Shown piece by piece: positions 11,240 to 61,060 of a stretch of 64,000 nt of DNA. Position numbers and translations under genes: made by a program. Source of the stretch: Eubacteriales bacterium. Lineage in GTDB: Bacteria; Bacillota; Clostridia; Oscillospirales; CAG-272. Within the stretch, counting starts at the first letter, position 1; each line of letters opens with the position of its first letter. Where the stretch lies: positions 552 through 64,551 of the forward strand of contig JAZRIF010000156.1 of the NCBI GenBank assembly GCA_045645165.1, read 5' to 3'. The notes under the pieces were generated by a model, which was not told where the DNA came from, made no database searches, and saw only the letters and a program-made list of their open reading frames with translations.

Positions 11240-12381
11240 AAATTTTGATCACAGGTGCCCGGGGCTTTGTCGGTCGGAATCTGACCGCGGCTTTGGGGCG
11301 CACCCATGAAATTCTGCCGTACGACTTGCCATCCGACCCGACTATACTGGCTCATTACGCCGAGCAGACCGATTTTGTCATTCATCTGGCGGGGGTCAAC
11401 CGCGCGGATGATCCGCGGACTCTGTGGGACGGTAACGTCGGCTGTACCGAACGGTTGCTGATGACCCTGAAAGAGCAGGGAAACACCTGTCCCATCCTGT
11501 TCGCGTCTTCGGTTCAGGCGACGCTGGAGGGTCGATACGACAACCCCTACGGCCGGAGCAAGCGAGCCTGCGAGGAGCGGCTGTTTGCCTATTCCCGCGA
11601 AACGGGAGCAGAGGTGCTGATCTACCGCTTTCCCAACCTGTTCGGCAAGTGGTGCCGCCCCCACTACAACTCAGTCGTGGCGACCTTTTGCCATAATCTG
11701 ACCCGTGATCTGCCCATCGAGATACACCGTCCTAATGAAATGCTGGAGCTGGTCTATATCGACGATCTGATTGCCGAAATACAGAACGCTCTGGCGGGGA
11801 ATCCCCACCGAGAAGGGGAAGGATCTCCCTTCTGCTCGGTTTCCGTAACCCACTCCGCAACGGTGGGGGAGATCGCGTGTTTGTTGGAATCCTTCCGCGA
11901 CCGAGGGAGAACGCCCGCTGTTTCGGCTATGCCCGACGACAGCTTGGAAAAGAAGCTCTATGCCACCTACCTCTCCTACCTACCCGTTGATCAGGCCGTA
12001 CGCCCGCTGGATAGGCATAAAGATGCTCGCGGCTCGTTTACCGAGCTCATCCGCACGGATCTTTGCGGGCAAGTTTCGGTCAATACCATAAAGCCCGGTG
12101 TCACCAAGGGACAGCATTGGCACATGACCAAGCACGAGATCTTTACGGTGGTGGCGGGTGAGGGACTCATCCGTATGCGGCGGGTGGATGGCGACGAGGT
12201 GCTGGAATTCCCCGTTACGGGGGAGAAGCCCGAAGCCGTTCGCATTCTGCCCGGTTACGTCCACAGCATTACCAATCTGTCGGAAACGGCGGATCTTGTC
12301 ACGGTTATCTGGGCGAGTGAATGCTACGACCCCGCAAGGCCCGATACCTATCCCGAGGAGGTGGAACCCCATGAATCTTGA
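11236..12381 (+). CDS. fnlB: CapF/FnlB-type bifunctional reductase/epimerase (N-terminal SDR plus C-terminal cupin)
   Basis: ILITGARGFVGRNL Rossmann motif, with a C-terminal cupin-like GQHWH...F.VV.GEG. ATGA start/stop overlap with fnlA. Confidence 0.75.
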   Translation: MKILITGARGFVGRNLTAALGRTHEILPYDLPSDPTILAHYAEQTDFVIHLAGVNRADDPRTLWDGNVGCTERLLMTLKEQGNTCPILFASSVQATLEGRYDNPYGRSKRACEERLFAYSRETGAEVLIYRFPNLFGKWCRPHYNSVVATFCHNLTRDLPIEIHRPNEMLELVYIDDLIAEIQNALAGNPHREGEGSPFCSVSVTHSATVGEIACLLESFRDRGRTPAVSAMPDDSLEKKLYATYLSYLPVDQAVRPLDRHKDARGSFTELIRTDLCGQVSVNTIKPGVTKGQHWHMTKHEIFTVVAGEGLIRMRRVDGDEVLEFPVTGEKPEAVRILPGYVHSITNLSETADLVTVIWASECYDPARPDTYPEEVEPHES

Positions 12382-13549
12382 TTTCAGCAACGTGAAATTC
12401 CGTGATAACGGCAAACTCAAATTACTCATCATGGTGGGCACCCGACCCGAGATCATCCGCCTGTCTGCCGTGATCGGGAAGTGCCGCCGCTATTTCGACT
12501 GTCTCCTGGCTCATACGGGACAGAACTATGACTATACCCTCAGCGGAATTTTCTTCCGCGATCTGGGGGTGGATGCGCCCGATGTCTATCTTGACGCCGC
12601 AGGAGCGGATGTGGGTGAGACGGTGGGAAATATCATAAACGCCTCCTACAAGCTTATGGCGGCCATCCGTCCCGATGCGCTCCTGATTCTGGGCGACACC
12701 AACTCCTGCTTGTCTGCGATTTCCGCGAAGCGCCTGCATATTCCCATTTTCCACATGGAAGCCGGGAACCGTTGCATGGACGAATGTCTCCCCGAGGAGA
12801 CCAACCGCCGCATGGTTGATGTCATTTCAGACGTAAATTTGGCCTACTCCGAGCACGCTCGCCGCAATCTCCTTGCCTGCGGTCTTCCTTCCGAGCGCAC
12901 CTTCGTGACGGGCTCTCCCATGGCCGAGGTGCTTCGCGCCAACCTCGCGGCTATAGAAAACAGTGATATTCTCACCCGTTTGGGCTTGCCTTCCAAAGGA
13001 TATATACTCCTTTCCGCTCACCGCGAGGAAAACATCGACGATGAGGCGAATTTCAACGCTCTCTTTACCGCCATCAATCGTCTGGCCGAGCGGTACGGTA
13101 TACCCATCCTCTACCCCTGCCATCCCCGCGCCCGTAAGCGCCTGGAGGCGTCGGGCTTTGCTCTTGACCCCCGCGTGATGCTTCACGAGCCCTTGGGCTT
13201 TTTCGATTACAACCATCTCCAGATGAACGCATTCTGCGTGGTCTCCGACAGCGGAACCCTTCCCGAGGAGGCAAGCTTTTATACCTCCATCGGCAGACCC
13301 TACCCCGCTGTGTCCATCCGCACCTCCACCGAGCGTCCCGAGGCCATGGAGAAAGCCTGCTTTACCCTGGCGGGGATCCGCGAGGACAGTCTTCTGCAAG
13401 CGGTGGAAACCGCCGTGTCCTTGATTCAAAACGGTGACTGGGGCACCCCCGTCCCCGCCTATACCGACGAGGACGTATCCACCAAAATCGTCCGGATGAT
13501 CCAGTCCTACACCGCAGTCGTCAACCGTAACGTTTGGCGGAAATTCTGA
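12371..13549 (+). CDS. fnlC: UDP-N-acetylglucosamine 2-epimerase, non-hydrolysing (FnlC/CapG type)
   Basis: LLIMVGTRPEIIRLS N-terminal motif. The ATG at 12371 overlaps the fnlB end by 11 nt. The listed ORF start at 12158 lies inside fnlB. Confidence 0.85.
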   Translation: MNLDFSNVKFRDNGKLKLLIMVGTRPEIIRLSAVIGKCRRYFDCLLAHTGQNYDYTLSGIFFRDLGVDAPDVYLDAAGADVGETVGNIINASYKLMAAIRPDALLILGDTNSCLSAISAKRLHIPIFHMEAGNRCMDECLPEETNRRMVDVISDVNLAYSEHARRNLLACGLPSERTFVTGSPMAEVLRANLAAIENSDILTRLGLPSKGYILLSAHREENIDDEANFNALFTAINRLAERYGIPILYPCHPRARKRLEASGFALDPRVMLHEPLGFFDYNHLQMNAFCVVSDSGTLPEEASFYTSIGRPYPAVSIRTSTERPEAMEKACFTLAGIREDSLLQAVETAVSLIQNGDWGTPVPAYTDEDVSTKIVRMIQSYTAVVNRNVWRKF

Positions 13550-49346: not shown

Positions 49347-51647
49347 ATGAAGAAAATATTTGCTCTCGTATTAACAGTATTCTTATTGGCAGGTATGTTT
49401 TTGATTCTGGCAGTAGCTGATGAATCCGCAGACGAACAATTCATCACGATTTTTGAAGAGAATTTTGAAGATTACGAAAACAATGTCAATGTCAGCTCCA
49501 CATTGATGCCCAACTTTTTCGTATGCGACTATAATGCCATTGGCGACGGTGTCATCCACGTGCAGGAAACCGCCAATGGCAACCTGCATTTGAAATCCCA
49601 TGTCTTTACCCAGATCTATTCCGCCACTCCAATTGTGGGTGCCTATGAGTTCTCGCTGGACATTCTTGAGGCACAAGGCCTGGTGCAGACCGGTGTATTC
49701 ATCCGCGCGCCCAAAACAGATGCGGTATTTTACGAGGCAGACGGCCACCCCGATACCTCTACAGGCCAGGCGGGATTGTTCCTCTACGTTCGTGATGCCA
49801 TTCTTGGTGTCAATGTTAAAACCTACGACGAAAATGCTTCGAGTACTGCGTTCCTTCAAAACAACACTGTGGAATTCTCTTTGCCGGAGGGTGTTACATA
49901 TCCATATACGATCCGTGCGGTAGATACCGGCGCGGAGATTACCCTGCATGTCAACGATACCTTGATTTGCAGCGTGACCTTCTCGGATCCCGGCAAGGTA
50001 TACAGTAACCACCAGTCCAAAGGCAAGTTCTTCGGTACAGCCAAACTCTTCGATGCCGAGGGCAAGGAGCTGGCAACCTATACCGACCCTCTGTTGTCCA
50101 GTGATGCCTCTTACATCGGTTGGACGACTCGCGCTGCTGATATGCGCGTAGACAATATTTCCGTTAAGGCTGAGGCGGCTTATCAGACCTTGCTGGCTAT
50201 AGGCAAACTTCCTACGGAGGTAACGGAGAATAACGTGAGCGAGGCTAAAGAGTTGGCTGAAATTGCTCGTGAACTGTATAATGCTCTACCAGAGGAAAAG
50301 AAAGCCCTGGTGAACAATTACAGCAAGCTTACTGCTGCTGAGGAATCGATCGATGCCATTGAGAACGCCACCGAACCCGAGACCGATGAATCCACAGACA
50401 AACAATTTATTACGATTTTTGAAGAGGATTTTGAAGAGTACGAAAAAGATGTCAATGTCAGTTCCACTTTGATGCCTAACTTTTTCGTGTGCGACTATAA
50501 TGCCATTGGTGACGGTGTTATCCATGTGCAGGAAGCCGCCAACGGTAACTTGCATTTGAAATCCCATGTCTTTACCCAGATCTATTCCGCTACTCCCATT
50601 GTAGGCGCCTATGAGTTCTCGCTGGATATTCATGAGGCACAAGGTCTGGTACAGACCGGCGTATTCATCCGCGCACCCAAGACCAACTCGGCTTACTACG
50701 AGGCTGATGGTCACCCCGATACCTCCACGGGTCAGGCGGGATTGTTCCTATATGTTCGTGATGCCAATCTTGGGGTCAATATTAAAACATATGACGAGAA
50801 CGCAAGCGGAACTTCTTATTTGCAGAATAATACAATCAACTTCTCTCTCCCTGAGGGAGTTACCTATCCTTACACTATCCGCGTGGAGGATACCGTCTCT
50901 GAAATTCGCATATATGTGAACGACACATTGATCTGCCAGGTAACCCTATCGGATCCCGGCAAGGTCTACGGTAGCCACCAGTCCGAGGGCAAGTTCTTCG
51001 GTACAGCCAAACTCTACGATGCCGAGGGCAAGGAGCTGGCGACTTATACTGATCCTCTGTTGTCCAGCGACGCATCCTACATCGGTTGGACGACCCGTGC
51101 TGCTGATATGCGCGTAGACAATATTACTGTTATGGCTGAGGCTGCTTATCAGACCTTGCTGGCTATAGGCAAGCTTCCCACAAAGGTAACGGAGAAGAAT
51201 GTGATTGAGGCTAAGGAATTGGCTGAAATTGCTCGCGAACTGTATGATGCTTTGCCCGAGGAAAAAAAGGTGTTGGTGAACAATTACAGTAAGCTTACTG
51301 CTGCCGAGGAATCGATCGATGCCATTGAGAATGCCACCGAGCCCGAGACCGATCCTGTTACCGAACCGGAGACCGATCCCGTTACTGAACCCGAGACAGA
51401 CCCCGAGACTGATCCCGTTACCGAACCCGAAACTCAGCCTGAAACCGAACCTGAGTCCAACGCCCCTAACGGCGATACCACCAATGCACCCGAATCCGAG
51501 GCGAACACGGATAAGTTATCCGACGACACCAGCAAGTCTAATGACAAGGATGTTGATAATTCTCTGATCACCTGGATCCTCATCGCCATTATGATCGTGG
51601 CTGTTCTGTGTGCGGCAGGCTTTATTGTCATTAAGGTCAGAAAGTGA
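49347..51647 (+). CDS. Cell-surface protein with two near-identical ~322-aa modules (jelly-roll/LamG-like domain plus helical domain), a PETD-repeat linker and a C-terminal TM anchor
   Basis: Signal peptide, an internal tandem duplication, EPETDPVT repeats, and a C-terminal ...LITWILIAIMIVAVLCAAGFIVIKVRK. Confidence 0.8.
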   Translation: MKKIFALVLTVFLLAGMFLILAVADESADEQFITIFEENFEDYENNVNVSSTLMPNFFVCDYNAIGDGVIHVQETANGNLHLKSHVFTQIYSATPIVGAYEFSLDILEAQGLVQTGVFIRAPKTDAVFYEADGHPDTSTGQAGLFLYVRDAILGVNVKTYDENASSTAFLQNNTVEFSLPEGVTYPYTIRAVDTGAEITLHVNDTLICSVTFSDPGKVYSNHQSKGKFFGTAKLFDAEGKELATYTDPLLSSDASYIGWTTRAADMRVDNISVKAEAAYQTLLAIGKLPTEVTENNVSEAKELAEIARELYNALPEEKKALVNNYSKLTAAEESIDAIENATEPETDESTDKQFITIFEEDFEEYEKDVNVSSTLMPNFFVCDYNAIGDGVIHVQEAANGNLHLKSHVFTQIYSATPIVGAYEFSLDIHEAQGLVQTGVFIRAPKTNSAYYEADGHPDTSTGQAGLFLYVRDANLGVNIKTYDENASGTSYLQNNTINFSLPEGVTYPYTIRVEDTVSEIRIYVNDTLICQVTLSDPGKVYGSHQSEGKFFGTAKLYDAEGKELATYTDPLLSSDASYIGWTTRAADMRVDNITVMAEAAYQTLLAIGKLPTKVTEKNVIEAKELAEIARELYDALPEEKKVLVNNYSKLTAAEESIDAIENATEPETDPVTEPETDPVTEPETDPETDPVTEPETQPETEPESNAPNGDTTNAPESEANTDKLSDDTSKSNDKDVDNSLITWILIAIMIVAVLCAAGFIVIKVRK
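49437..51368 (+). repeat. In-frame tandem duplication, 2 x 966 nt
   Basis: An identical offset of 966 nt holds at three anchors: CAATT[CT]AT[CT]ACGATTTTTGAAGAG at 49437/50403, TGTCTTTACCCAGATCTATTCCGC at 49601/50567, and GAGGAATCGATCGATGCCATTGAGAA at 50340/51306. Confidence 0.9.
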
Positions 51648-51654
51648 GTTCGCC

Positions 51655-54564
51655 ATGACCGTTACAAAGAAGCACGTAAAGTATAGATGGGTGGCACTGG
51701 GACTGCTGCTGGCAGTTTTGGTCACTTCTTTCCCCCTCATGGCATTGGCCGACGGGAGCAGCACCCTGAATGCTTTGGATATTACGTCCGATGATCGAGC
51801 TTATGATTGGGTGACCCATGGCAAAACGACTTACACTTACGACTTTTCTGCAACTGATATCACTGTTTACTCAAAAGACGAAGCGTTGGCTACCTCCTCC
51901 TTGCGTACCAACATGATTTTCGACGGCCATACCCTGTCCTGCAAGGAGGGGAAAACCTTCTCCTTCGGTTCATCGATCTTCTTGGGTGACGATTATGGCC
52001 TCTACGGTGGCGAGATGTCGGTGGATGCGGTTGTCACGGGAGGGAAGGTATCCATCGGTACCCGCCTCTCCCGCACCGCCACCGATGCTAAGCACCGTGG
52101 TATCTGGTTTAGCTTCGATGGAACTGATACAGTAACGGTTTCTGAGCCCGAAAGCCGTTTGTCCGCTGCTGTCAAGGCAAGCAAGCCCGCTTCGGTGGGA
52201 AAACTCACAGTTAAGGACAAGGCTTCGGTCATTGAGCTGTATCTGGACGGGACTCTGCTCTGCTCGGTTGCCTACAATAGCTACACAGGAGGCATCGCAA
52301 TACTGGATGCACATGGGAACACCCTTGCCTCCAAGGATTCTACTGACGTTCGTCCTGCAGGCTATTTCACCATCTATGCTGATAAGATGGCAGGTCACAT
52401 CGATAACGTGACTTTTGAGCATAACGATCTGACAGTGGAAAAGACAGACGCGAAGGGCTTCTCTATCGACTACACTACCTGGGTCGCTACCGACGACCGC
52501 GACCGTACCACCCCCACGGGCATTGATATCCGCGAAGAGAAGCAAGTCGGTCTATTCTATTTTCTTAATCGCGGTTTCCACGACACAGAGGATATACTGG
52601 ACAACACACGCATTTTCTTGGAAAACGACCTGGAAGGCCTTAACGAGCACTTGACAACTCCCGGTCATAGCGGCGGCTACTTTTGGGCTGAACCTTACTT
52701 TGGTTACTACAAAAGCAACAGCGAGTGGGTCTTCCGTAAGCATGCCTACCAGCTTGAGGCTGCCGGTGTAGATTTCATTTTTCTGGACTTCACTAATGGT
52801 GCCTACTATCCCCAAGAACTCCAAGTTCTGCTGGATACCTGGCTGGAAATGCGCCGCGAGGGTACCGATACTCCTGATATCTGTGTTTTTAGCGGTATCA
52901 GCTATAGTGCTGTTATGAGTGCTCTACAAGGTTCCGTGTACTCTGAAGAGGGGTTTGACAAGTACGGTGAGCTCTACTACCAGTATCAGGGTAAGCCTTT
53001 GACGCTGGTCAATGAATTTCCCCTAACGGCTCCCTCGTCGGAACTGGAGAAATGGATGTCCGACTCTTTCACCCTCCGCAATTGCTGGGCGTGGACGGAC
53101 GAAGATGGTAGCTGGAATTGGTTGCAAGAATACGCACAGCGCAAGGAAACCATCCGCTACACTCTTGGCGGTCCCGGTCGTGACATAAATGGTAACTTTG
53201 AGCAGTTGGCTCTCTGTATGGGTCACCATCCTACCACCTCCAAGGGGCGTTCCTATGACGGCATCAAGATTACCCGTTGTCCCGAGAATGACTATGGCTT
53301 CTCTATGGATTCCGGTGCAGGCTTGGGCTTCGCTGCCCAGTTTGAGGCGATCATGCACTACGATCCTAACATGGTCATGATCACAGGATGGAACGAGTGG
53401 ACGGCAGGGTTGGATCATACCAGCTCGGGGTACGACACCTTTGCTGGCTCTACCGATTTGGGTTTCCAGTTTGTGGATCAGTTCAACACCGAATTCTCAC
53501 GTGACGGAGAGCCCATGAAACTCCGTCAGGGTGAGGAGTCTGTTGGATACGGCGACAACTACTATTACCAGATGGTTGGCTACATCCGCCAATACAAAGG
53601 GACGGGAGCAGTCACCCAGGCCTCGGGACAGGTATCCATTGATCTTTCCAATCATACCGTGTGGGATAATGTAGGCCCTGTATACGGCGACAACGTGTGC
53701 GATGTGGAGTGGCGTAATGAGACCGGTACATTCGCCAATCTCACCTATGTCAATAACACTGGTCGAAACGATCTTGTGACCTCTAAGGTTTCCCAGGATA
53801 GCGAGTACCTTTACTTTGCTGTCACTACCGCTGAAGATCTCATCATCGACGACGGTCAGAACTGGATGAATCTCTATGTAGATATCGATAATAATCCCAC
53901 TACAGGCTGGGAGGGCTTTGACCTCGCCCTTAACCGACACCGCGATGGTCACTATGTTTCGGTGGAATCCATGGCTGGCGGTTGGGCAGGTGCCCATATC
54001 GCGCAGGCGCTCTATACCGTGACTGGCAATCAAATGGTGATCCGTCTTTCCAAGGACGCTGTAGGCATCAGCGGGCACGTCTCCACCCTTTGCTTCAAGT
54101 GGGCGGATAACTCCACCCTAACAGGCAATATCATGGAATTCATGGATTTGGGCGACACCGCCCCCAATGATCGTTTCTCCTATATGTATGTCTGCCCCGA
54201 AGGTGAAGGAAACGCTGAGGTAACTACAGGTACTTATACTCTATTGACTGCCGATGGCTCTGCTGTGGACACTCGCGACGAATCCAATGCGCTCCCCGGC
54301 TTTGAGGATACCAATAAACCTACGAACGACACGAACACTCCTGATACAAATACTACGGACACGAACATTCCCGACACGAACTCTCCGAATGAACCCTCAA
54401 CTAAGGGTGAGACCGCCGAGACACCGGATGTTTCCAACAAGCCTGTGGAGCAGGAGTATCCAATCGAACTTAAGATAACAATTGTTCTTACAGGCGTTGT
54501 ATTGGGTGTGTGTTGTTTCGCTTGTATCGTAGTAGCGGATTTTGTCAAGAAAAAGAAAAAGTGA
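51655..54564 (+). CDS. Cell-surface putative glycoside hydrolase (N-terminal jelly-roll module, central TIM-barrel-like region with a GWNEW motif, beta-sandwich, DTN-repeat linker, C-terminal TM anchor)
   Basis: I prefer the ATG at 51655. Signal peptide. Motifs FIFLDFTNG and MITGWNEWTAG. C-terminus ...VLGVCCFACIVVADFVKKKKK. The family is not assignable by eye. Confidence 0.6.
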   Translation: MTVTKKHVKYRWVALGLLLAVLVTSFPLMALADGSSTLNALDITSDDRAYDWVTHGKTTYTYDFSATDITVYSKDEALATSSLRTNMIFDGHTLSCKEGKTFSFGSSIFLGDDYGLYGGEMSVDAVVTGGKVSIGTRLSRTATDAKHRGIWFSFDGTDTVTVSEPESRLSAAVKASKPASVGKLTVKDKASVIELYLDGTLLCSVAYNSYTGGIAILDAHGNTLASKDSTDVRPAGYFTIYADKMAGHIDNVTFEHNDLTVEKTDAKGFSIDYTTWVATDDRDRTTPTGIDIREEKQVGLFYFLNRGFHDTEDILDNTRIFLENDLEGLNEHLTTPGHSGGYFWAEPYFGYYKSNSEWVFRKHAYQLEAAGVDFIFLDFTNGAYYPQELQVLLDTWLEMRREGTDTPDICVFSGISYSAVMSALQGSVYSEEGFDKYGELYYQYQGKPLTLVNEFPLTAPSSELEKWMSDSFTLRNCWAWTDEDGSWNWLQEYAQRKETIRYTLGGPGRDINGNFEQLALCMGHHPTTSKGRSYDGIKITRCPENDYGFSMDSGAGLGFAAQFEAIMHYDPNMVMITGWNEWTAGLDHTSSGYDTFAGSTDLGFQFVDQFNTEFSRDGEPMKLRQGEESVGYGDNYYYQMVGYIRQYKGTGAVTQASGQVSIDLSNHTVWDNVGPVYGDNVCDVEWRNETGTFANLTYVNNTGRNDLVTSKVSQDSEYLYFAVTTAEDLIIDDGQNWMNLYVDIDNNPTTGWEGFDLALNRHRDGHYVSVESMAGGWAGAHIAQALYTVTGNQMVIRLSKDAVGISGHVSTLCFKWADNSTLTGNIMEFMDLGDTAPNDRFSYMYVCPEGEGNAEVTTGTYTLLTADGSAVDTRDESNALPGFEDTNKPTNDTNTPDTNTTDTNIPDTNSPNEPSTKGETAETPDVSNKPVEQEYPIELKITIVLTGVVLGVCCFACIVVADFVKKKKK

Positions 54565-57600: not shown

Positions 57601-57847
57601 CCTGGGCTGGGATCCCTACGAGGTCGACGTCACCGAGGCCTACAAGAACGGCTTGCCAATCAGCGTGATCGTAGAGGGCGTCCGTACCAACGTCTTTGGT
57701 CCTCTCCATGAGGTAGCCAAGCCCGCAGGCTCCTGTGGTCCCGAAAACTTTGTGACGGGCGGAGATCAGTGGACAGATAACTACAGCCTGCTCCGCAGCG
57801 GTTTGCGAGGCTTTGTTTTCAAAGCACAGAAAACTATGGCGAAATAA
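54653..57847 (+). CDS. Large intracellular glycoside hydrolase, GH106-like (alpha-L-rhamnosidase-type) by N-terminal motif
   Basis: 1064 aa with no signal peptide. The N-terminus YRGKPFWSWNGEL...MKEMGLGGYFMHSRAGL...WLYDEDRWPSGSAGG matches my recollection of the GH106-type N-terminal TIM-barrel signature. The family call is unverified. Confidence 0.5.
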   Translation: MERKQIIQNFASPSVAYRGKPFWSWNGELRGEELVRQAHVMKEMGLGGYFMHSRAGLITEYLGDEWFDLINEVADAAEEDGMEAWLYDEDRWPSGSAGGKVTVDPQYRMKSLYVFESAPDKVDWNDESFALYVAKLDGLNLYTYKELDTLSIACCKCAARKVKEAIAELDATAANEPGVWKALRFAIVPDAPSSGYNGTTYIDTMSRKATDKFIEMTHEEYAKHCGDRLGKSIKGIFTDEPHRGHCFDNLRENDGVMSCAIAWTDDIFEEFETRYGFACRPILPELFYRKNGEIVAPVKLHYIDLANALFLERFAKPLNDWCNDHGIQFTGHVLHEDSLMNQTVPNGSLMRFYEYMGYPGVDVLTEHSRCYWIVKQLASATRQLGKKWLLSELYGCTGWQFDFKAHKTVGDWQALFGINLRCQHLSWYTMEGESKRDYPASILHQSPWYKDYGKVEDYFARMGLVLSEGKAACDVLLLNPIESVWCQAYVGWASWIFNVSPDVVPYEHRYAQLFHYLTDHQIDFDYGEEEMMSRMASVDAVNGTPVLRVGQATYKTVIVSNMLTIRPTTLALLKDFMDIGGKVIFCGDAPTYVNAIASDEPAKLAEQGITIPYDEEILVATIRENACEFVSITNGEGEAEKAVFAQVRKNFGDDGYAVVVLNTDRGQPRENLTLAIKATAGYAVEEWDLETGDRYDASALAGEVSGTYYISMDLEAAGTRCFVLTKTPDELPAVTEYETVASETLTGEFPYAAHEPNVCVLDWCKWRWKDGEWHDEAEALWTDRQIRSDIGIEWRGGGMLQPWYAKLNDTKKYGELQLSYEFFIDEMPEFDVILAGERPELNQYKINGVELHNDDINDFWVDDCFKKMKIPAGALKLGRNEVTIDVTFMRTTNVEALYLVGIFGVKVDGKKRTIVGTPGLIGCDNYAAYNMPFYTGNMEYILTPEDFENILGDAAKDADRIVLTPKEFTGSCVKVVAAGKTTVLGWDPYEVDVTEAYKNGLPISVIVEGVRTNVFGPLHEVAKPAGSCGPENFVTGGDQWTDNYSLLRSGLRGFVFKAQKTMAK

Positions 57848-58105
57848 GAGGAGTATACTACTCAATAAGGAAACGATGTCAACACAAAGGATAATGATGT
57901 GACTGGCGTTATTTGTGGGGTAAATATTGACACAGTAATTATTCTGGTACTTGTCATCGTCAAATTGAAAAAGCAATAATGCATTCACTGACTTCGTGTT
58001 AGCCGGAGGATTCGTGAAGCTAACCTATCTCCTTTCTTATGGGAGCCGCTCCCCCGCCCGCAAGGGTGGGGGAGTTTGTCAAATATGCACCATTGGAGGT
58101 TAATC

Positions 58106-58321
58106 ATGCCCAAAACAGACCGTTTTCGCGCCCTCTACGTCCTGAAATACCTGTGGGAACATACCGACGAGGAGCACCCCGTAACGTTGGCACAGATTCA
58201 AACTCATCTCTCCGAGCCGGGGATAGGATGGCAATTTTTGACGCAATCCTCAAACACGCGGATGTACGGCTTGCCTGCTTTGCTCATGCAAGCGATGACT
58301 AGATCGGTATCGGTGATATAG
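58106..58321 (+). pseudogene. 5' fragment of a WYL-domain / HTH transcriptional regulator gene, disrupted after about 40 codons
   Basis: MPKTDRFRALYVLKYLWEHTDEEHPVTLAQIQTHLSEPGI is a typical N-terminal wHTH of WYL regulators, preceded by GGAGGT. From about 58226 onward the reading frame carries unrelated sequence and stops at 58321. Confidence 0.6.
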
Positions 58322-58389
58322 CCAAGACCTGAGATCTTGTCGATATCATCTCTTCGATACCGGGTAACACTGTAGACTACTTTTTTCAT
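58204..58389 (-). CDS. Short ORF, probably the 5' fragment of a lost gene, abutting the WYL fragment
   Basis: Strong AGGAGG RBS 7 nt before the ATG at 58389, and TTGACA-17-TAATGG upstream. Its 3' end runs into the WYL fragment on the opposite strand, so the true C-terminus is probably missing. Confidence 0.35.
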   Translation of the reverse strand: MKKVVYSVTRYRRDDIDKISGLGYITDTDLVIACMSKAGKPYIRVFEDCVKNCHPIPGSER

Positions 58390-58544
58390 TTTGGATTACC
58401 TCCTGATTTTTTATTTTGCCTTTCGGCAGAACCAGGGGAGCACTGTTCGGGTGAAGTCGTGTCCATTACGAATGCTGAATGAATCTGTCAACGCGAGGTA
58501 CAGTCCCTTACGAATACAAGAAAAAATATTGCATTTGGATACAG

Positions 58545-58575
58545 AAAAGGCCAAGTATTGCTACCTGGCCTTTTT
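58545..58575. terminator. Orphan bidirectional terminator-like hairpin
   Basis: AAAAGGCCA / TGGCCTTTT stem with a 12-nt loop. Confidence 0.4.
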
Positions 58576-58685
58576 GCTATTATTTCATTTTTCAGCGATA
58601 ATTTTTCACGTTGACTGATTCGAGAACTGTGCTAAACTGGTGACGACGAAAGGCTAAAAAATCGGGGATTATATAAATGAACAGA

Positions 58686-58714
58686 TTGACTAATTCATTG
58701 AGATCGTGTATAAT
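58686..58714 (+). promoter_or_regulatory. Near-consensus sigma-70 promoter for the orphan HNH-like gene
   Basis: TTGACT - 17 nt (ending in TG) - TATAAT. Confidence 0.7.
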
Positions 58715-58778
58715 GTAATCGAAATATGTAGATGGTCATGGAAATAGAGTATTCATAAAAATTTTAAGGAGAATTATC

Positions 58779-59594
58779 ATGAAATCTGTAAAACATCCAG
58801 GTCAATGTAAAATATGCGGACAGTTAAAGGAATTAACTGCGGAACACATCCCCCCTAAAAATGCCTTTAACTCTTCAAATGTGGTGGTTTTACCTTTTGA
58901 AGAGGTTATAAAAACCATGGCTGGGGAAGATGGAAGAATGCCATGGGATACACAAGGATTAAAAGGAACAGTTCAACAAGGTGGACACAAGAAATATTGC
59001 CTTTGTCGCGAATGCAATAACAATACTGGATCATGGTATATGAGGGAATATACTGATTTTGCCAAAACCGTCAATGCTATGATTCAGCAAGAAAGCCTAT
59101 CCGTTGGGAATTCGTATTCTTTTGTAATAAAAAACTTATACCCTTTACGTATTTACAAAGCAATGATGACTTTGATGTGTGATATAAATAATAATTGCTT
59201 TGGAGATGAGCTTCTTCGCCGGTTCCTTATGAACAGAGAAGAGAAGCGTATCAACACATCTAAGTATTCGCTATATATGTATTTTGTTTCTACACAAATG
59301 CCGCGAATTAGTGGTCTTTCGGGGATTGTAAATATAAATAACTTAGGAGAAAATGTATTAGTTTCTGAAATGTCATCGTATCCTATAGGTTTTGCACTTT
59401 ATCTGGATAAACCAACTAACTATACCCCTTTTGGAATAAACATAGATATGTTTGCTACATTTGATTATGATGCAAAATGTGATTTGCATTTCGGCGGTGT
59501 ACCGTATTTGGATATAAACAGTCAATTTCCAGCAGACTATCGTTCAAAAGACGACATTGTAAAATGTGCAGAGAATACAGTAAATTCAATGTAG
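58779..59594 (+). CDS. Orphan AT-rich gene: protein with an N-terminal HNH-like/zinc-ribbon signature and an unknown C-terminal domain
   Basis: CKICG-x9-EHIPPKNAFN...CLCRECNNNTG. This combines two CxxC pairs, an E-H dyad and Asn residues, resembling a beta-beta-alpha-Me finger. AAGGAG RBS. Codon usage and base composition are clearly AT-richer than in neighbouring genes. Confidence 0.6.
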   Translation: MKSVKHPGQCKICGQLKELTAEHIPPKNAFNSSNVVVLPFEEVIKTMAGEDGRMPWDTQGLKGTVQQGGHKKYCLCRECNNNTGSWYMREYTDFAKTVNAMIQQESLSVGNSYSFVIKNLYPLRIYKAMMTLMCDINNNCFGDELLRRFLMNREEKRINTSKYSLYMYFVSTQMPRISGLSGIVNINNLGENVLVSEMSSYPIGFALYLDKPTNYTPFGINIDMFATFDYDAKCDLHFGGVPYLDINSQFPADYRSKDDIVKCAENTVNSM

Positions 59595-59760
59595 AGCAAC
59601 TAAAAACAATGATCGTCAAAACTTGTGGTTTGTATATTTCCTGCCGCAATAATGGAATAATCTGATAATATCCTTGATTTAGAGACGAGTTTGAGGGTAA
59701 AGCTCTATAGTTTTCCTATGAGAGTTTTTCAGATTTCAAAAGCCAGTTAGTAGCGAAAAA

Positions 59761-59787
59761 GCGCGCAACTCATTTCGAACTGCGCGC
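59761..59787 (-). terminator. Intrinsic terminator for the minus-strand AraC gene
   Basis: GCGCGCA / TGCGCGC stem. On the minus strand it is followed directly by TTTTT. Confidence 0.6.
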
Positions 59788-59825
59788 CTACTTATTTTTT
59801 GCAAAGAAAAACCTGCATAAGCCGA

Positions 59826-59857
59826 GGTGTTCGACATATGCAGGTAATGGTGAGCCA
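59826..59857. repeat. Inverted copy of the GGTGTTCGACATAT...TAATGG...CCA motif (copy 3 of the repeat family)
   Basis: GGTGTTCGACATATGCAGGTAATGGTGAGCCA matches the reverse complement of 42943-42974 at 26 of 32 positions, counted by hand. Confidence 0.6.
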
Positions 59858-60007
59858 ACTTCAAACTAAATCGAATTTGATTTATACGCTTTCTACTGCA
59901 TTGCTATCACTTTCTATTACCCTGCTCAATAGCAACATAACAAATAATATCAAGAAATTACAGCTGAAAAATTGACTTGCTTGTTTTGCTCTTTTCAAAC
60001 ACATGAG

Positions 60008-61060
60008 CTAAGAAATGCGGTAAGCACTGGGTGTATGTCCCGTCTGCGCCATAAACGCCTTGTAAAAGGAGCTACAGCTCTCAAAGCCGACCTCCGTGCT
60101 GATGTCTGACACCGAAAGCTCGGTCTCCTTAAGGAGGCGGCAAGCCTCATTGATTTTAAGTCTACGCTGAATGGAGACGAAATTTGTTTGTGTCTGGGCT
60201 TTAATCAATCGGCTGACGTAGGACGGAGAATAATTGAATGCCTTGGCCACGCTCTGCAAGGTTGCCTCCTTATAGTGCTGCTTGAGGTAATTGAGTATGG
60301 AGGGAACCGCTGAATGCGGATAAAGGGGAAGGTTGTCCGAAGAGCCGTTCTGAGCCGCCGATCTTTCGGATAAAAGAGCGAAAAAGCTTTTCATCATCCA
60401 GACATAGGGCAGATCATCGGCATTGCAGTTTTTTTGACGGAGTTTTTCCAGTATCAGGAGCTGCAAGAGCTCGTGAGCCGCCTCGGGACAGTCGGTGCCC
60501 TTGATAAAATGGTACTTGGAAAGGTTGGAGCAGAAAAAACTATGGTAAAGAAATGACACAAGAGGGGATCTGTAATCATTCAGTAAGCTGCGATAGGTGA
60601 CCTCAAAGGAGGAGGCCTTCAGCAGTATATTGAAGAGCAAGCCGTCGCAACGGTTCATGCTGTGCTCGGTAAAGGGAGGGATCACACACAGATCCCCCGG
60701 ATTCATAGCCAGCACTCGTCCGTCAATGGTATGCTCCGCACGGCCGTCCAACAGATAGGACATTTCGAAAAATTCATGGGTGTGAAGAAACGGCGGCATA
60801 TGACGGACGTGATGGGACACGTAGATCTGACGGTTATCCTCCGGAAAGTAAAACTTTTCCAACAACAGATCCACAGGACGGGGGGTGATCTGCGGCAAAT
60901 ACATATTGTGCTGCTTTACATCCTCCATATCCGTGGATGCCAGAAAGCCGGACAGATCACCGCTTTGGACGGCTCTGTGGTATTGCTCATATATTTCCTC
61001 GCCGTACATATCGGGACGGGTTAATTCATAAAACTCGTCTTGATGATTATTTCGGAACAT
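60008..61060 (-). CDS. AraC-family transcriptional regulator
   Basis: C-terminal AraC HTH (VSDISTEVGFESCSSFYKAFMAQTGHTPSAYR). I prefer the ATG at 61060, which follows GGGGGAGGG. Confidence 0.85.
   Translation of the reverse strand: MFRNNHQDEFYELTRPDMYGEEIYEQYHRAVQSGDLSGFLASTDMEDVKQHNMYLPQITPRPVDLLLEKFYFPEDNRQIYVSHHVRHMPPFLHTHEFFEMSYLLDGRAEHTIDGRVLAMNPGDLCVIPPFTEHSMNRCDGLLFNILLKASSFEVTYRSLLNDYRSPLVSFLYHSFFCSNLSKYHFIKGTDCPEAAHELLQLLILEKLRQKNCNADDLPYVWMMKSFFALLSERSAAQNGSSDNLPLYPHSAVPSILNYLKQHYKEATLQSVAKAFNYSPSYVSRLIKAQTQTNFVSIQRRLKINEACRLLKETELSVSDISTEVGFESCSSFYKAFMAQTGHTPSAYRIS

Follow-up and report, generated by a model that had tools for sequence, protein, structure and literature searches.

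A member of a widespread, unnamed protein family with a split HNH-like core, a candidate stand-alone defence nuclease, persists in the remnant of an integrative island

Introduction

Cys4-zinc nucleases of the HNH/endonuclease VII kind carry their H-N-N motifs in a recognizable order: a CxxC knuckle, an acidic residue and histidine at the end of a strand, an asparagine, and a CxxC-Asn at the start of a helix. Here we compare the closest described systems with a gene in a 64,000-nucleotide stretch of DNA from a Eubacteriales bacterium (Bacillota; Clostridia; Oscillospirales; CAG-272), called the window throughout, which comprises positions 552 to 64,551 of the forward strand of contig JAZRIF010000156.1 (GenBank assembly GCA_045645165.1). 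This focal gene had been proposed from the sequence alone (the original prediction) to occupy 58686-59594 of the window and to encode an HNH-like nuclease. The intact open reading frame (ORF) does end at 59594 and its translation contains the motifs CKICG...AEHIPPKNAFN...CLCRECNNNTG, but it begins at 58779, position 58686 being the start of the promoter's -35 hexamer. We give an even chance to the reading that the product would be a stand-alone, self-restrained, defence-type HNH DNA endonuclease, carried as cargo of integrative elements and defence islands. What is new is the combination of an HNH core interrupted by an insertion with a second domain that resembles nothing known.

In phages, endonuclease VII resolves Holliday junctions as a small, domain-swapped enzyme. 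The focal protein resembles the T4 enzyme (Endonuclease_7, PF02945) in its H-N-N variant, predicted Cys4 zinc site and 'C-x2-C-N-x3-G' helix start, and differs in its C-terminal domain (C-domain) and in the near-absence of its family from phage records. EcoKMcrA, a Type IV methyl-directed enzyme of prophage e14 whose gene lies on a mobile element beside a recombinase, is likewise a single-gene HNH protein with a second domain, mobile carriage and no cognate methylase. The domain order is reversed, the HNH of McrA being C-terminal, and the focal C-domain has no detectable similarity to the modified-DNA-binding domain of McrA or to SRA and EVE folds; no modified-DNA-binding domain (McrA N-domain, SRA, EVE/PUA or SBD) was found by Pfam in 135 family members or as a PDB fold. 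As with Type IV enzymes the gene stands alone: the AT-rich islet around it contains no methylase, and across 74 loci no methylase is conserved as a neighbour.

PrrC and RloC, which are ATPase-fused anticodon RNases unrelated in sequence to the focal family, are alike in genomic habit, since some family members also lie between hsd genes, although most are not hsd-embedded. Cap5, the HNH-SAVED effector of cyclic-oligonucleotide-based antiphage signalling systems, combines an N-terminal HNH with a C-terminal non-nuclease domain that could gate activity, a layout that the focal protein may share; no cyclase gene was noted in Pfam-annotated contexts of the focal family or among its commonest +/-1 neighbour families, and no SAVED match was found. 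HNH_5 (PF14279) shares the motif order CxxC-G ... E-H-[IV]-P ... L-C-x2-C-N, from which the focal family departs in scoring below threshold, in having its core split by ~35-40 residues and in carrying an extra 160-aa C-domain outside any model. In the His-Me finger superfamily classification of Jablonska et al. 2017 (PMC5714182), HNH_5 appears in Group 1 and in an uncharacterised, HNH_5-only Group 8. Two further entries, PHROG 21495 and BFVD A0A8S5THI9, are remotely related to the focal family and equally uncharacterised.

An HNH-like core split by a conserved insertion

The focal gene and the two domains of its product are as follows (CDS, coding sequence; AF2, AlphaFold2; pLDDT, predicted local distance difference test).
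58779..59594, + strand: focal CDS, 271 amino acids (aa), ATG start, intact
58779..59093, + strand: N-terminal domain, aa 1-105, predicted Cys4-zinc HNH/EndoVII-like core split by an insertion (conservation, HNH_5, AF2)
59112..59591, + strand: C-terminal alpha/beta domain, aa 112-271, six-stranded sheet (AF2 pLDDT >90)

Conservation was computed over 135 diverse family members with a mean column identity of 24%. Invariant residues were C10, C13, H23, P25, P26, N31, G69, C76, C79, N80, G84, Y87 and P202, and E22 and Q67 were conserved in at least 90% of sequences; the conservation of Cys and His residues, which had been suggested as a check on the nuclease proposal, thus did not refute it. The AF2 model of the whole chain (pLDDT 90.3, predicted TM-score (pTM) 0.87) has strands at residues 16-23 and 71-76 and a helix at 77-104. 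In the combined view of conservation and model, H23 closes the first strand, preceded by the acidic E22, as the catalytic histidine of the superfamily does, and N80 sits directly after the second CxxC (C76-x2-C79) in the first helix turn, where a metal ligand is expected. The two knuckles C10/C13 and C76/C79 supply, at sequence level, the four cysteines of a Cys4 site.

When the whole protein was scanned with Pfam, the segment C76-C79-N80 aligned to HNH_5 positions 33-45. The HNH_5 score was 12.5 bits for the whole protein, 18.7 for the N-terminal domain (N-domain) alone and 22.7-24.0 for a spliced core from which residues 32/34-66/70 had been removed in silico. The spliced core aligned contiguously to positions 1-45 of the 56 in HNH_5 (E 3.7e-5 to 9.3e-5), and also matched positions 23-71 of 82 in Endonuclease_7 (E 1e-3) and 1-45 of 47 in HNH (E 0.027). 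This contiguous match indicates that the 'non-canonical spacing' noticed earlier is a conserved insertion in an otherwise ordinary HNH core. The insertion (~35-40 residues, about aa 32-70) has a family-wide PW as well as Q67 and G69. Across the family HNH_5 was matched by 109/135 members (best E 1.2e-5), Endonuclease_7 by 32/135 and HNH by 25/135, in every case below threshold; a core split in this way shows why profile thresholds overlook such enzymes. Judged by sequence, membership of the His-Me finger/HNH superfamily appears well supported.

A C-terminal domain without known relatives

The C-domain contains the conserved residues P122, L123, K127, F133, E197, P202, G204, D253 and R255 (135 sequences), among which K127, E197, D253 and R255 are polar. 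It had no Pfam match in any of the 135 members, PDB sequence-profile searches with 41- and 135-sequence profiles returned nothing at E<=10, and Foldseek found no significant match for the domain in PDB. With the full model, a Foldseek search of PDB yielded nothing above noise (probability <=0.3 for BlaR1/PBP, roadblock and PAS matches). The focal protein had no match in NCBIfam either, so the earlier remark that the remainder of the protein matches nothing recognizable holds for Pfam, NCBIfam, PADLOC and PDB. A single significant match came from BFVD, to A0A8S5THI9, an uncharacterised 266-aa Myoviridae protein (E 3e-6, TM 0.44, 14% identity).

The N-domain reached a pTM of only 0.49 when modelled alone, against 0.87 within the whole chain, and most listed relatives were matched across both domains. 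On these grounds the two domains look like one integrated enzyme rather than a nuclease carrying a swappable module.

A large and patchily distributed family

All 93 close relatives of the focal protein are unnamed and without precomputed Pfam domains. A HMMER scan of 1.84 billion representatives yielded 2,326 family clusters at E<=1e-3 and 591 at E<=1e-30, counted at 50% identity. Listed relatives are 240-342 aa long, mostly 255-300, apart from a few shorter and probably partial ones, and most are matched end to end. The exact sequence of the 271-aa window protein had no record in a look-up.

Scanning a one-genome-per-species set with a 41-sequence alignment found 284 relatives, mostly in Clostridia (Lachnospiraceae, Oscillospiraceae and Acutalibacteraceae). 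The taxonomic distribution is patchy, other carriers being Paenibacillus, Geobacter, Bradyrhizobium, Chloroflexi, Acidobacteria, Myxococcota and more. PHROG 21495 was matched at full length by 90/135 family members (best E 1.4e-12). This is a large family that is unnamed in Pfam, NCBIfam and PADLOC and is, as far as could be tested, set apart from described defence, abortive-infection (Abi), homing-endonuclease and toxin-antitoxin families.

Relatives occupy variable mobile and defence-type neighbourhoods

ORFs were called in 80 species loci bearing homologs of the focal gene (labelled L001, L007, L011 and so on). The focal ORF was recovered in 74 of these, and its 576 neighbours (ORFs of >=70 aa) were clustered. 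No neighbour family held a fixed adjacent position in the 74 loci, the commonest occurring in 10 at positions from -4 to +5. Near the gene we found tyrosine integrases (10 loci), large serine recombinases (8), Type I restriction-modification (R-M) subunits (6), DUF4379 zinc-finger repeat proteins (5), Dcm-type methylases (4), insertion sequence (IS) transposases (4) and MmeI-type IIG enzymes (3). Pfam-annotated contigs added AbiGi/AbiGii, AAA_14-DUF4143, SLFN-AlbA_2, reverse transcriptase, SHOCT, Rhs cassettes, ArdA and KilA-N. At least 33/74 loci have a mobility or R-M gene within +/-5 genes, a descriptive count without a background rate. Homologs thus keep mobile or defence-type company and not housekeeping company, which does not refute the defence proposal.

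Several individual arrangements were also observed. The DUF4379 proteins are treble-clef repeat proteins of ~620 aa with six repeats, in L027 and L060-L063 at +1 or -1 and in L011 at 11813-12757. In L005 and L006 the focal homolog is followed by a SLFN-AlbA_2/HATPase_c_4 protein, a 507-aa protein with a weak RVT_1 match and then a serine recombinase, an island that looks like a stack of candidate defence genes. In L013, L014 and L007-L010 a gene for a 431-432-aa AAA_14/DUF4143 ATPase lies at -1 on the same strand, 33-61 nt upstream; this pairing, found in two separate lineages and not in the window, may be lineage-specific.

The constant company of integrases, serine recombinases, ArdA, Rep and IS elements could also mean that the protein is a selfish or element-maintenance nuclease (homing-type, addiction or entry-exclusion) serving the mobile element rather than host defence, which we consider unlikely. 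Distant relatives do occur on 17 plasmids, 13 of them typed as conjugative or mobilizable (hosts include Listeria, Weissella, Enterococcus, Lactiplantibacillus, Leuconostoc and Streptomyces), and in the window a self-contained cassette has outlasted its decayed neighbours, as an element-serving gene might. Free-standing HNH genes are, moreover, classic homing endonucleases. Homing-type HNH enzymes are placed in His-Me finger Group 1 (PMC5714182). The residence of the family speaks against such a role: tblastn found no match in 50,697 phage records, 2.9 million viral contigs yielded 7 loci, 4 of which lie no more than about 1 kb from where the contig ends, and insertion sites and neighbours differ almost everywhere, with no conserved target gene interrupted. 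The residence typical of a free-standing homing endonuclease, in phage genomes, introns or inteins and beside or inside a conserved target gene, was not observed. Pfam scans also found none of the NUMOD, IENR or HTH (helix-turn-helix) DNA-binding modules, and the genome-set matches showed no multi-copy pattern, copy number per genome not having been specifically examined.

In six loci, which represent three phyla, the focal homolog is embedded in a group of hsdR, hsdS and hsdM genes (L012, L023, L044, L049, L054 and L079; Clostridia, Geobacter and Cryosericum). In L012:2679-6140, L023:6183-9876 and L079:8677-12544 the member sits between hsdS and hsdM with gaps of -44 to +85 nt, a spacing suggestive of joint transcription with the Type I R-M operon. 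By analogy with PrrC, a member might then serve as a Type I accessory or back-up effector, held latent by the Hsd complex and freed when a phage inhibits restriction, and the overlapping or near-abutting frames in these three loci would suggest co-translation. We find this account improbable for the family, as the arrangement occurs in only 6/74 loci, the window copy and most others have no nearby hsd gene and instead have their own promoter or other neighbours, and neither sequence comparison nor PADLOC links the protein to PrrC or RloC.

The homolog in L003 has Rhs cassettes nearby, and several loci have DNA methylases in the vicinity of the gene, which brings up a further alternative, an orphaned Type II R-M endonuclease or the toxin of a toxin-antitoxin or polymorphic-toxin system that has lost its partner here. 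HNH domains do occur in Type II enzymes and polymorphic toxins (PMC5714182). The 74 loci contain no conserved adjacent methylase, immunity gene or antitoxin among ORFs of >=70 aa, family members (255-300 aa) have no Rhs or delivery-domain fusion, and a partnerless toxin under a near-consensus promoter would be expected to be lethal. We regard this origin as very improbable. As general explanations, toxin-antitoxin, Type II R-M and two-gene Abi systems were rejected for want of a conserved partner gene.

A proposed self-restrained nuclease and the evidence against it

In the proposed mechanism of a stand-alone defence nuclease, C10/C13 and C76/C79 would coordinate a structural zinc. The general base would be H23, where strand 16-23 ends, and the catalytic divalent metal would be held by E22 together with N80, which lies in the opening turn of the long helix. 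The substrate would be DNA. Because the promoter is near-consensus and no immunity or antitoxin partner is conserved, some restraint would be needed and the protein would have to be intrinsically safe for its host. The insertion (aa 32-70) and the tightly packed C-domain could provide target recognition, restraint of the nuclease, or both. One option would be specificity for a feature of foreign DNA, as in Type IV restriction, which would fit the company of R-M systems; another would be auto-inhibition until infection, as in abortive infection. Genomic context points to defence and makes the protein a candidate effector.

Several results weigh against this proposal. No protein form tested reached the Pfam gathering score, the best HNH_5 score (24 bits, spliced core) comparing with 27.5; at the level of sequence the four defining features of the superfamily are present, and the curated threshold is failed. 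The nuclease-like fold anticipated in the original prediction was not recovered: with both the full model and the N-domain model (pLDDT 79.5), Foldseek against PDB gave no hit at E<=0.001 and no HNH nuclease among the matches listed, the best N-domain matches being non-significant treble-clef zinc proteins (eS26 and ZAD). The insertion and the small size of the motif may defeat Foldseek. Aligned to EcoKMcrA, hhalign picked the HNH domain (residues 203-269) and paired both CxxC knuckles, with a probability of only 3.5%, and it put the McrA catalytic His within the insertion and not opposite H23; as evidence this match was rejected as too weak. PADLOC v2.0.0 had 0 matches for the window protein at E<=1 and no consistent match among 135 relatives. 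The marine locus L001 has no obvious defence genes. Literature searches found no named system corresponding to the family and no experiment on any member.

The HNH-like finger of the original prediction therefore stands on its invariant residues, the HNH_5 matches across the family and the match of the spliced core, and falls short of the gathering score, with no HNH structure among its Foldseek matches. Its broader proposal of a horizontally acquired nuclease-type defence effector is partly supported: the HNH-like chemistry and the acquired, defence-type context hold, and the nuclease fold and defence function are predictions.

The same structural results would suit a catalytically inactive treble-clef zinc finger with nucleic acid or protein as its binding partner, for example a regulator or an adaptor, its HNH likeness being only ancestral. 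Treble-clef proteins are the only structural neighbours of the N-domain, some members have weak Pfam treble-clef and rubredoxin-like matches, and every HNH match is sub-threshold. Inactive HNH derivatives usually lose their catalytic residues, whereas here H23, E22 and N80, which only catalysis would call for, are invariant or nearly so across very divergent sequences, besides the zinc cysteines. The spliced core also covers the whole catalytic motif of three HNH-clan models, and we see little likelihood of an inactive binder.

A more specific form of the defence proposal is that the family is a widespread, hitherto unrecognised single-protein immune system, in which the C-domain and insertion form a new sensor that holds the zinc-HNH nuclease inactive until a phage component or a foreign DNA modification is detected; we put this forward tentatively, as possible rather than probable. 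On this sensor reading both the defence family and its sensor fold would be new, and integrative elements and plasmids would have carried them across many phyla. If the family does act in defence, a single gene of 0.8 kb would make up a compact immune module that hundreds of species carry, that is common in gut Clostridia and found also on plasmids of lactic acid bacteria, and that PADLOC v2, Pfam and NCBIfam miss. Defining the target of the C-domain would in that case extend the known repertoire by a further pairing of sensor and nuclease. This family is one of many comparable candidate nucleases; because of this, and because its function is read from sequence and context, the immediate surprise for a specialist is moderate.

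The focal gene is a complete monocistronic unit

The signals around the focal gene are listed below (RBS, ribosome-binding site).
58544..58580, + strand: hairpin with U-run, terminator-like, upstream of the promoter (inverted repeat I5; -15.6 kcal/mol, z = -3.5)
58686..58714, + strand: sigma-70-type promoter TTGACT-17 nt-TATAAT (11/12 match, best site in region)
58766..58772, + strand: RBS AAGGAGA, 6 nt upstream of the ATG, read from the sequence
59761..59800, + strand: GC stem (GCGCGCA/TGCGCGC) with U-run, intrinsic-terminator-like (-18.9 kcal/mol, z = -3.1)
59806..59845, - strand: convergent terminator, putatively of the host araC-family gene (inverted repeat I4; -20.4 kcal/mol, z = -5.2)

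The promoter named in the original prediction was confirmed as the top-scoring site within 57800-60200. Weaker promoter matches are inflated and mean little, because this AT-rich region exceeds its shuffles in promoter-like sites (12 vs 7.2 +/- 2.8). The promoter segment is not common to the loci of close homologs, where homology by blastn begins at 58761. All three hairpins were more stable than 200/200 shuffles. The upstream hairpin is a putative terminator that would insulate the focal gene from upstream transcription; the GC stem starts 167 nt past the focal stop codon, and the terminator-like hairpin on the opposite strand marks the right edge of the acquired DNA. With its own promoter, RBS and terminator-like stem, the focal gene forms a complete monocistronic unit. 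The ratio of nonsynonymous to synonymous substitution rates (dN/dS) between the window gene and its closest relatives is 0.03-0.05, with dS near saturation, indicating that the coding sequence is under strong purifying selection.

The islet is the remnant of a larger island

GC content is 0.33-0.39 across about 58500-59850, compared with 0.55-0.62 in the flanking genes. Their products are a 1064-aa protein resembling GH106, a regulator of the AraC family, encoded on the opposite strand, and an 826-aa protein of GH36/melibiase type (GH, glycoside hydrolase). The AT-rich islet between sugar-utilisation genes was therefore correctly recognized, as was the status of the focal gene as its sole intact gene: the other ORFs in 57848-60007 are a 57-codon stump and an HTH stump of ~39 codons. 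The remaining features of the islet are these.
58106..58222, + strand: N-terminal stump, ~39 codons, of a regulator gene of the winged-helix, possibly WYL, type (ORF, weak tblastn)
58204..58389, - strand: truncated copy of p99, a small conserved island gene, first ~57/99 codons (alignment with full-length 99-aa genes in L011 and L007-L009)
58390..58653, no strand: island backbone intergenic DNA common to L011 (blastn)

The adjacent WYL-regulator remnant claimed earlier is present as a regulator-gene stump, and its WYL identity is weakly supported: in tblastn the 40-aa stump peptide matched two N-termini, that of a single annotated WYL protein confirmed by Pfam (E 0.4) and that of an unannotated winged-helix protein (E 0.02). 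WYL is thus a plausible label for the stump at sequence level.

Over window positions 58223-58653, blastn identity is 79% with L011:478-907 and 74% with a part of L007-L009; in these loci focal-gene homologs lie 2-7 kb from the homologous segment. The islands in L011 and L007-L009 also hold ArdA, Rep, serine recombinase and AbiG genes. The 99-aa gene is intact at L011:345-644, where it adjoins ArdA, and at L007:5468-5767, and has no Pfam match. In the window p99 homology stops at about 58219-58222, abutting the HTH stump, and two facing stumps that meet at one point (~58222) indicate an internal deletion. The islet is thus a deleted and decayed remnant of a larger integrative island, a point that the original prediction overlooked, and the focal gene is its only intact survivor. 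The island has decayed around a gene kept whole as a promoter-RBS-CDS-terminator unit, and the window is an example of one defence-type cassette persisting after the mobile island that brought it in has broken down.

Gut-metagenome contigs part from the window before 58218 and beyond about 58634-58666. Read depth over 58337-58670 was several-fold above that of the focal gene in four gut metagenomes (123x vs 10x in run X2), and this backbone is therefore probably part of a mobile element that several genomes carry or that occurs in several copies. One metagenome contig covers 58400-59144 with four differences from the window. The metagenome DNA contigs were too fragmented to reveal either an empty site or a full island.

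An inverted repeat at 58587-58604 and 59955-59972 (18 nt, 16/18 complementary), which brackets the focal gene, was considered as a pair of element ends and rejected as probably none, about one such pair being expected by chance in this AT-rich stretch on a rough estimate. Just upstream of the HTH stump, in surrounding DNA of moderate GC, lies a G/C-rich palindrome-like stretch, GGGAGCCGCTCCCCCGCCCGCAAGGGTGGGGGAG, at 58040-58075. Within the sugar-utilisation cluster, directly upstream of the GH106-like gene, a 984-aa ORF (51610-54564, + strand) had no Pfam match at E<=0.001.

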